A DNA stretch of 64,000 nt, taken from positions 26,195 to 90,194 of the forward strand of contig DASUSN010000052.1 of assembly GCA_036375075.1 (NCBI GenBank). The letters are read 5' to 3'. The notes under the pieces are model-generated. The model worked only from the letters and a program-made list of their open reading frames with translations. It was not told where the DNA came from and did not search any database. How positions within the stretch are numbered: position 1 is the stretch's first letter; each line of letters starts with the position of its first letter. A program made the translations under genes and the position numbers. Shown here piece by piece: positions 18,789 to 20,095 of this stretch. The stretch comes from Thermoanaerobaculia bacterium. Its GTDB lineage: Bacteria > Acidobacteriota > Thermoanaerobaculia > Gp7-AA8.

Positions 18789-20095
18789 TCCAATTCGCTC
18801 CAATCGATGGTGGTGGGAACGTTCGACTTCGCGAACAGCGAAGCCAGCATTTCCGCGGGAGTGTAGACGCGAACGTCGCCGAGCTCGCTCGGACGCCGGT
18901 TCCTCATCGTGAACAGCATGCGCTGCGTGACGTATTCGAAGTTCGCGTAGTAGTCGTCGTCCTTGCGCTGCTCGAACATCGCTTTGAGGGTCTCGAGCTG
19001 GCGGGTGAGGGGGTCGTCGAGTCGACGAGTCGACGAGTCTTCCAGTCGACGCGTCGAGGAGTCAGCCGGTCCTCCTCGACGACTCGACGGCTTGTCGGCT
19101 CGTCGACTCGGCGGCACGAGCCCCACCATCGCCCGGATGTCCAGCTCCGCCGGCTTCTTCCTCGCGGCCTCGCGCGGCCGCATCAGCAGCGCCGGGATGC
19201 GGTTGCAGTTCGCCTGATGGATGGCCTCGCTGCGCGTGATCCAGCCGAGGTTCGTCACGCCGCAGCGCGCCGAGACGTTGCGCGTCAGGTTGTCCAGGAA
19301 CGGCTTCACGGCCGTCTCGAACGAGTCCTCCACGCCGTTGAACAGGTTCAGCACGTAGTGCACGCGGAACTCGTCGATCGTCGTCTGCACCGTCCGCGTG
19401 ATCGGGTGATCGCCGAGGTTCTCGGCCAGATCGAGCGCGAACGCGTCGAGGTTCTGCACCGACGAGTCGTACACGTCCTCCACCTGGTCGATCAGCTCGT
19501 TGATCAGCTTGAACGAGAACGCGCTGTCCGGCACCGTCTCGAAGAACGGCGACTCCTTGCTGAAGATCAGGCGCAGCTTGCGGAACAGGATCGCCTTCAC
19601 GATGTCCGAGGCCGCCAGCGTCGCGCTCGGCAGATGCGGGGTGAAGACCAGGATCCCCGAGTTCGAGAACGGCAGGAAATCGATCACGTTCGCGTCGAGG
19701 CCCGCGCGCATGTCCAGGATCACGTAGTCCGCCGGCAGCGTGTTGATGGCCTCGATCAGCTTGGCCTTGTGGGACGCCCCGAAATTCGTGATCTCGTCGA
19801 TGAGGTGCAGCGGTCCGGCGACGAAGCCGAAGTCGCGGTAGCGCTTCTCCGGATCGAGCCGGTCATCCAGCGTGGTCACGCAGTTCGCCAGCGGCTCCCC
19901 GCGGCGGAAGAAGTGGTAGAGGTCCTTCTCGATCGGGACGTCGATGGCGTTGCGGATGGCCGACGTGCCGGTGTCGAGGTCCACCAGGACCGTGCGTCCG
20001 TGGCGGGACAGGGCGAGGGCGAAATTGATGGCGAACGTGGTCTTGCCGACGCCGCCCTTCCCGGACGAGACGGGGATGATGCGCTTGATCGCCAC
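18785..20095 (-). CDS. MinD/ParA-family P-loop ATPase with long C-terminal extension
   Basis: Deviant Walker A VSSGKGGVGKTTFA, then VLVDLD and ILDMRAG. 436 aa. The C-terminal third carries an in-frame repeat-derived segment (SSTRRLEDSSTRRLDD). Confidence 0.8.
19013..19112. repeat. Family F-like micro-repeat hairpin located inside the ParA-like CDS
   Basis: GTCGTCGAGTCGACGAGTCGACGAGTCTTCCAGTCGACGCGTCGAGGAG-loop-CTCCTCGACGACTCGACGG...CGTCGACTCGGC. Shares GTCGTCGAGTC and GAGTCTTC units with 59109-59308. Confidence 0.7.

Follow-up and report, generated by a model that had tools for sequence, protein, structure and literature searches.

Host gene and position of the element

The DNA analysed here is a 64,000-nucleotide (nt) stretch of contig DASUSN010000052.1 from a Thermoanaerobaculia bacterium, and the whole of this stretch is referred to as the window. 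Its subject is a palindromic repeat element that lies in frame within a protein-coding gene. The host gene is an open reading frame (ORF) of 436 amino acids (AA) on the minus strand (18785..20095), identified by ORF and Pfam analysis as a MinD/ParA-like P-loop ATPase. A deviant Walker A motif (KGGxxGK[ST]) is present as SSGKGGVGKTT, and the Pfam families ParA, AAA_31, and CbiA were matched over their gathering cut-offs (38–40 bits vs. 25–27). The NCBIfam equivalogs for MinD and ParA scored far below their cut-offs (TIGR01968, 45 bits vs. 212.9; NF041546, 33.7 bits vs. 180). Judged by its sequence, the host gene appears to represent an uncharacterised Thermoanaerobaculia subfamily of MinD/ParA-like proteins with a C-terminal region of its own.

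Alignment with orthologues divided the protein into three parts, all encoded on the minus strand. Residues 1–326 (19118..20095) comprise the ATPase domain and a conserved helical region ending in ...ELDIRAMVGL, with mostly invariant columns. Residues 327–360 (19016..19117; VPPSRRADKPSSRRGGPADSSTRRLEDSSTRRLD) form a hypervariable linker that consists almost entirely of the hairpin element, the copy being positioned 330 codons into the ORF. Residues 361–436 (18788..19015; DPLTRQLETLKAMFEQRKDDDYYANFEYV...TIDWSELE) form a conserved C-terminal region of 76 residues, for which no Pfam or NCBIfam family could be matched. In an AlphaFold2 model, the lowest predicted local distance difference test (pLDDT) values, 25–33, were obtained at residues 320–360, where no secondary structure was assigned; the model was built from a 26-sequence alignment, is poor as a whole (mean pLDDT 46.7), and serves as weak support for a disordered linker only. 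The linker between the ATPase body and the C-terminal region is probably disordered.

The stop codon of the host gene overlaps the ATG of a downstream M28 peptidase gene (ATGA, approximately 18785–18788, up to 18790). The same order of MinD-like gene and M28 peptidase is present in the related locus L081, which suggests translational coupling of the two genes.

Structure of the hairpin element

The element is an imperfect hairpin of approximately 105 nt at 19013–19119, the arms of which are tandem 8-nt words (GAGTCGAC/GAGTCGTC/GAGTCTTC against the opposing GACGACTC/GTCGACTC). Tandem Repeats Finder revealed one period-8 array at 19013–19063 (6.4 copies, consensus GTCGACGA) and another at 19075–19110 (4.5 copies, consensus CTCGACGA). 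A repeat search delimited inverted arms of 45 nt each at 19017–19061 and 19075–19119, which were 73% complementary and separated by a 13-nt spacer. On the plus strand, the left arm with its period of 8 (19013..19063) reads GTCGTCGA GTCGACGA GTCGACGA GTCTTCCA GTCGACGC GTCGAGGAG; it becomes the 3' arm on the mRNA and codes for ...DSSTRRLEDSSTRRLDD. The right arm (19075..19119), defined by both the period-8 array and the inverted repeats, reads CTCGACGA CTCGACGG CTTGTCGG CTCGTCGA CTCGGCGG on the plus strand and becomes the 5' arm on the mRNA, coding for PPSRRADKPSSRRG. The hairpin tip and loop were placed at 19064..19074 from the fold and by comparison with L081 and run X3.

Folding of the mRNA-sense strand (19000–19125, minus) gave a single long imperfect stem of -70.4 kcal/mol (z = -4.09), and one of 200 dinucleotide shuffles was equally stable. 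The linker DNA with 9-nt flanks gave -68.8 kcal/mol (z = -4.4), and the 81-nt segment centred on the linker was the most stable among 113 segments of the host gene. An assembly artefact could be ruled out for the palindrome, as a contig (615 nt, depth approximately 22) that was assembled independently from the source sample in Logan covers 18785–19256 with no differences. A search of Rfam at 19013–19119 returned nothing but a spurious sub-threshold match to a microRNA precursor.

A preliminary description of this DNA had reported a micro-repeat hairpin inside ORF 18785..20095, ending at 19112, with the frame open through it and further residues following. The period-8 arrays, the inverted arms, and the -70.4 kcal/mol fold bear out the hairpin, while its end had to be moved, since the paired region reaches approximately 19119. 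The ORF remains open across the element (peptide ...PPSRRADKPSSRRGGPADSSTRRLEDSSTRRLDDPLTRQLE...) and is conserved on both sides, and the residues after it are the 76 of the conserved C-terminal region.

Dispersal of the GAGTCGWC word family

The words of the arms belong to a family written here as GAGTCGWC, a second member of which is intergenic. It is a 200-nt hairpin (-124 kcal/mol) at 59108..59308, located between the stop codon of a regulator gene and the next ATG, with arrays of GAGTCGTC/GAGTCTTC/GAGTCTTCAAGTC against GACTCGAC/GACTCGAA. The preliminary description had claimed common units for the two elements; they indeed share units as well as exact words of up to 14 nt, which overlap into the 15-nt stretch CTCGACGACTCGACG.

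Sequencing depth in the source sample rose to 290 over 19005–19048 compared to approximately 25, which points to many other loci with GAGTCGWC-family words. Scanning of metagenome contigs for GAGTCGWCGAGTCGWCGAGTC revealed at least 120 loci, with 33 two-armed hairpins among the matches listed, on contigs of mostly 62–68% G+C (approximate range). A cleaner copy could be seen in the linker of the orthologue P0013 (L084), which reads GAGTCGTC GAGTCGTC GAGTCATC GAGTCTTC AAGGAG, followed by a loop and TCGAAGACTCGTCGACTCGAAGACTCGTCGACTC. In the same linker, GAGTCATCGAGTCTTCAAG matches GAGTCGTCGAGTCTTCAAG of the intergenic element at 18 of 19 positions.

In the elements at 19013–19119 and 59108–59308, GANTC is included in each 8-nt unit, as either GAGTC or GACTC, which amounts to 6 sites in approximately 100 nt. 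GANTC is the target of CcrM/HinfI-type methyltransferases. Across the whole window no enrichment of GANTC was observed (117 sites vs. approximately 130 expected from base composition).

Orthologues and age of the linker

Loci of 80 species representatives of Thermoanaerobaculia were fetched, and the linker could be delimited in 75 of them. It is bounded by ...D[IL]RA.[VI]GL and DD[PH]L.RQL, hypervariable in composition, and rich in Ala, Pro, Lys, Arg, Ser, and Thr, with nearly invariant flanks on both sides. The linker of the query is the longest among the 75 loci, at 33 residues. Because every delimited orthologue has a hypervariable linker of 16–27 AA at this position, the linker must predate the element.

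The 75 loci and the best 120 database homologues, the latter 420–445 AA long throughout, are single ORFs of approximately 412–445 AA with both conserved parts, and no split orthologue was found among them down to 52% identity. The preliminary description had raised the alternative of a fusion of two former genes at the repeat, and a recent fusion of this kind is supported by nothing but the location of the repeat between conserved blocks. Given that the single-ORF architecture persists in all of these proteins, such a fusion is extremely improbable and the claim is abandoned. The alignment with orthologues that had been proposed along with it also revealed that repeat-free orthologues do not conserve the peptide segment.

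Turnover of cassettes in the linker

Cassettes of other repeat families occupy the same linker in relatives. A cassette could be recognised by peptide signature in 54 of 193 homologues, distributed as families A (GAGTCGWC; 23), B (18), C (7), D (4), and E (2); database proteins were classed by peptide pattern, and DNA was checked for the fetched loci only. Family B (ACGTAGGACGGGCTTCAGCCCGTCC..GGGCTGAAGCCCGTCCTACGT, also given as CGTAGGACGGGCTTCAGCCCGTCCTACG) starts with the GTAG-containing CGTAGGAC... and encodes RRTGFSP..GRAEARPT in L004, L007, and P0004. Family C (GGAGGACAGGCAATCCTGCCTGTCC..inverse) encodes GGQAILPV..GQAGLPVLH in L069 (-70 kcal/mol) and L021, and family D (GACGGGCTCTCAGCCCGTC) is present in L012 and L018. 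B, C, and D are also present outside this linker, both in the loci concerned and in others, typically directly 3' of stop codons, and in sequence they look like doublets of repetitive extragenic palindromic (REP) elements. Families B, D, and E have a GGGCT-N3-4-AGCCC core in common and may form one superfamily. For family E (L005), no convincing dispersed copies were found in the flanks, and it was therefore not counted as an independent repeat family. In one relative (L025:1440–1520), the stop codon of the MinD-like gene is directly followed by a family-B REP doublet; family B is thus found both at the end of this gene and inside its linker across the clade.

On a linker-masked tree, at least 30 changes of cassette state are required, compared to 52 with shuffled labels. 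The loci L081 (family A) and L082 (family B), each approximately 97% identical to the query, are 98.3% identical to one another upstream of the linker and 97.8% downstream, and they are unrelated between ...GGGCTCGTGCCGCCG (...GTGCCGCCG) and GACGACCCCCTC (GACGACCCC). The source sample itself contained a contig of a second strain (depth approximately 9), which departs from the window exactly at 19013–19019. At the hairpin tip, the query has 30 nt more than L081, and in one strain of run X3 position 19037 is joined to 19074, the 36 nt in between (19038–19073) being replaced by AACA.

Several unrelated palindromes in exactly the linker slot could be taken to mean that the mRNA hairpin itself is selected, as a translational pause between domains, an RNase site, or an internal attenuator affecting the coupled M28 peptidase, with any palindrome being recruited for the purpose. 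The segment centred on the linker is the most stable fold of the gene in 21 of the 75 species, and the overlap of the host stop codon with the downstream ATG would suit such a role. However, more than half of the orthologues have no unusual structure at the linker, including whole clades (L040–L068), and the close relative L083 has no palindrome there. Moreover, the families from which the palindromes were copied are found after stop codons at other places, and GC-rich Ala, Pro, and Arg codons inflate raw stability. A selected role of the RNA structure is therefore quite improbable, principally because whole clades are without structure at the linker.

In-frame copies in unrelated genes

In-frame copies were judged on metagenome contigs by ORFs with a high G+C content at third codon positions on both sides, and their host genes were named by Pfam. 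GAGTCGWC copies were detected in an HGSNAT-like membrane acyltransferase (L087:3103–3168, ...GVARSSSRQVDKSLDDSTTRRLG...), a BshC homologue (L162), a spermidine-synthase-like membrane protein (L189), and a protein without a Pfam hit (L110). The L189 copy has the 18-nt sequence CGACAAGCCGTCGAGTCG in common with the query. Firm internal positions could be assigned in at least four unrelated genes, with the same peptide signature. Two further copies, in a CheW protein (L167) and in a radical SAM protein (L161), lie close to the N-terminus; they were less certain and were dropped as firm intragenic cases, as they may precede the true start codons.

The HGSNAT-like gene (L087, L205, L206, and L207) provided a site that could be compared in filled and empty form. 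Approximately 100 of the 120 Thermoanaerobaculia orthologues listed have a 5-residue loop, KASRR, between transmembrane helices. The GAGTCGWC element occupies this slot in P0121 and P0145, and a hairpin of GTTCCTCGG/CCGAGGAAC words occupies it in P0140 and P0161; the latter family is also present in the window at 30939–31032, 54454–54557, and 56961–57076. A clade of approximately 12 proteins has ESSSHQ...ASAMRRLGD in the slot, which looks like an old, decayed copy. The DNA of the slot was checked for P0121, P0145, P0140, and one empty site. The comparison shows a clean presence/absence of the GAGTCGWC element, in which filled and empty sites differ by approximately 66 nt at once; no target-site duplication was visible between them, the compared orthologues being only approximately 77% identical. 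Orthologues lacking the element exist for the MinD-like gene too (L083 and many others), where the linker content is replaced.

These copies bear on the alternative of local growth, in which slipped-strand mispairing and hairpin-templated copying would have built up the array from the conserved Leu-Asp-Asp codons (CTCGACGAC) of the ancestral linker and Ser-Arg-Arg codons close to them, so that likeness to the intergenic family would reflect the same mutational process acting on similar words. The 3' arm includes the conserved anchor CTCGACGAC as one of its units, the short linker of L003 already holds GTCGAG...CTCGAC, copies vary in tip indels and unit number, and the native HGSNAT-like loop also codes for SRR. 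However, copies in unrelated genes have identity in common outside the units (the 18-nt CGACAAGCCGTCGAGTCG and a VDK motif), the L084 linker matches the intergenic element at 18 of 19 positions, and the HGSNAT-like presence/absence involves approximately 66 nt at once. Growth of the whole array in place is thus unlikely, although less so than the other alternatives considered.

Frame-independent coding of the arrays

Three 8-nt units amount to 24 nt, or eight codons, and no stop codon is present in the array. Since 8 is indivisible by 3, reading along an array passes through all three frames, and the same peptide is therefore encoded in every register: (GAGTCGTC)n gives ESSSRRVV and (GACGACTC)n gives DDSTTRRL in all three registers. 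The variants GAGTCGAC, GTCGACTC, and GAAGACTC give VDESTSRR, VDSSTRRL, and EDSKTRRL, respectively. Exactly these array-derived motifs are contained in the query peptide. Orientation is likewise irrelevant to coding because the element is palindromic.

Five of the six frames are open in the intragenic copy at 19013–19119, and five to six of six are open in two of the three window copies of the GTTCCTCGG family. Stop codons are present in the other word families of the window (TAGGACGAA, AGTGATG, and AGCTGTT/CTAACAG) and in the TTGAGACT part of 59108–59308. The word families found inside genes here, GAGTCGWC and GTTCCTCGG, are those with the fewest stops.

Stop-free arrays with a unit length indivisible by 3 resemble phase-variable simple repeats and could also indicate a contingency switch, in which adding or losing a single 8-nt unit would throw the ORF out of frame and so abolish the C-terminal region. 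However, the copy at 19013–19119 contains only two perfect adjacent units. All length variants observed were frame-preserving, and no out-of-frame variant could be found among the assembled homologues inspected or in contigs from four runs, where rare variants would stay hidden. Phase variation is accordingly regarded as very improbable.

Origin and persistence of the element

The segment is, with good probability, an in-frame copy of a dispersed and normally non-coding word-repeat hairpin that came to lie in a pre-existing hypervariable linker, in the manner of the Rickettsia palindromic elements (RPE). In this reading, the element would be a non-autonomous palindromic repeat with arms of tandem GAGTCGWC arrays and their complement, which occupies the tether between the ATPase body and the C-terminal region and is translated through as a peptide rich in Ser, Arg, Asp, and Pro. 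Two properties may account for its persistence. The linker would tolerate nearly any sequence of approximately 16–33 residues, and the word family is frame-proof, being free of stops in any register and either orientation. Selection would then let through only length changes divisible by 3.

The peptide itself is presumably a neutral passenger. The preliminary description had proposed domestication of a non-coding element as a disordered linker; that a copy of a non-coding family is read in frame as a low-complexity linker agrees with the present results, but the linker is older than the element and no gained function could be seen. Tolerated in-frame occupation or replacement fits better than domestication.

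The copy may have arrived by a transposition-like insertion, the previous linker being lost afterwards, by import of whole cassettes through homologous recombination via the conserved flanks, or by microhomology-guided copying at CTCGACGAC (Leu-Asp-Asp) and the SRR codons. All three routes fit the data equally.

Several observations weigh against an origin from a dispersed hairpin. Neither a transposase nor a target-site duplication nor a recent transposition event could be observed, and mobility is deduced solely from how the copies are distributed. The element takes the place of the linker in the MinD-like gene, where a recognisable empty site is lacking. Allele exchange by homologous recombination explains the interleaving of families A and B as well as repeated insertion does. 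Furthermore, the 3' arm continues seamlessly into the conserved CTCGACGAC (LDD) codons, and a portion of the array may thus have been generated locally. Translation through a stem of -70 kcal/mol is assumed from the conserved open frame.

A broader proposal, more tentative than the assignment of this copy to a dispersed family, is that stop-free word hairpins, and especially GAGTCGWC, constitute an undescribed class of self-propagating, frame-proof repeats colonising loops and linkers of Thermoanaerobaculia proteins. The ATPase linker and the HGSNAT-like loop would be preferred targets, with cassettes swapped between strains. This is possible but doubtful at present; if true, exchange of cassettes from strain to strain would provide rapidly tunable tether lengths.

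Other word-repeat hairpins and a second candidate slot

Besides the host-gene copy, Tandem Repeats Finder revealed word-repeat hairpins in the window at 17168–17242, 20836–20925, 30939–31032, 47481–47579, 54454–54557, 56961–57076, and 59108–59308. The copy at 19013–19119 fits their architecture, in which arrays of 7–10-nt words are inverted around a short loop, and is atypical among them in lying inside an ORF and not after a stop codon or between genes. The hairpin at 17168–17242 (TAGGACGAA/GTCCTATTC) is situated at the 3' end of the peptidase gene, and that at 20836–20925 (AGTGATG/ACTCATC) lies approximately 740 nt upstream of the MinD-like gene, past a divergent Crp-like regulator gene; both contain stops in most frames. 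In the closest species-level relative, a GAGTCCT/AGGACTC heptamer hairpin (L001:9213–9266) was observed approximately 800 nt upstream of the MinD-like gene, with another unit and the same architecture.

An AMP-dependent ligase gene (LTSGSTGxPKGI), approximately 7–8 kb downstream of the MinD-like gene, carries in-frame REP-derived peptides just before the AMP-binding motif. These correspond to GRRSGFSPTRRAEARPTF of family B in L004 (~18200) and L069 (~18300), half a unit in L005 (~16850), and SGAAGSQPVVAVRRAESPSLQ of family D in L018 (~18200), whereas other ligase orthologues have YRSGxxSVSxRxxxxRPxxP at this position. It looks like a second in-frame REP slot.

Comparison with known repeat systems

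As outlined in PMC10969869 and PMC3733652, RPE (Ogata et al. 2000 Science 290:347) are dispersed elements with intergenic and intragenic copies, the latter adding an in-frame peptide to unrelated proteins where the fold tolerates it. The query family is similarly dispersed, with intergenic and in-frame intragenic copies and a conserved peptide in unrelated proteins. It differs in its host, a free-living soil member of the Acidobacteriota as opposed to an obligate intracellular alphaproteobacterium, in its arms, which are tandem 8-nt words with frame-independent coding and not unique sequence, and in sharing its slot with other repeat families. The query element would thus work like an RPE by analogy; membership of an RPE family is not implied, and a match to RPE-1 to RPE-10 of Rickettsia would not be expected.

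Intragenic GTAG- or CGTC-tagged REPs and their dimers code for 20–30 residues and have been argued to sit in flexible linkers and loops (Di Nocera, De Gregorio and Rocco 2013, PMC3733652); in recB of two Xanthomonas species, different REPs are present at about the same site (PMC3733652). The cassettes of relatives (family B, CGTAGGACGGGCTTCAGCCCGTCCTACG, as well as C and D) look to be of this kind. In the query element, by contrast, neither a GTAG or CGTC tag nor a single 20–40-bp stem-loop unit was found, its arms being tandem 8-mers. When compared with miniature inverted-repeat transposable elements, the query element is an inverted repeat over its entire length.

The GGGAATC heptamer arrays of Xanthomonas are dispersed tandem 7-nt words located mostly less than 50 bp from ORF ends (Rehm et al. 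2015, PMC4692102), and in 70–75 cases they converge on opposite strands and are able to form stem-loops (PMC4692102). Unlike these, the query words are without G-tracts and lie in frame inside genes. In Borg proteins, fast-evolving short tandem repeats within ORFs create low-complexity, disordered segments (PMC9879509); those repeats are direct, formed locally, and of genic unit lengths divisible by 3, whereas the query consists of inverted arrays shared with an intergenic family. A small full-text literature search yielded no description of tandem-word hairpins translated in frame or of the frame-independence argument.

Implications

In-frame palindromic repeats are textbook knowledge only for Rickettsia and a few REP-rich genomes, and the present case extends them to the abundant uncultured soil Acidobacteriota. 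It also suggests a design rule for repeats living in genes: their words have to be stop-free, and units with a length indivisible by 3 yield the same peptide in every frame. For annotation, odd inserts rich in Ser, Arg, and Asp (SSRRV...DDSTTRRL) in Thermoanaerobaculia proteins would be read as repeat-derived and not as domains. Near-identical strains with different cassettes may serve as a natural system for the turnover of interdomain linkers.

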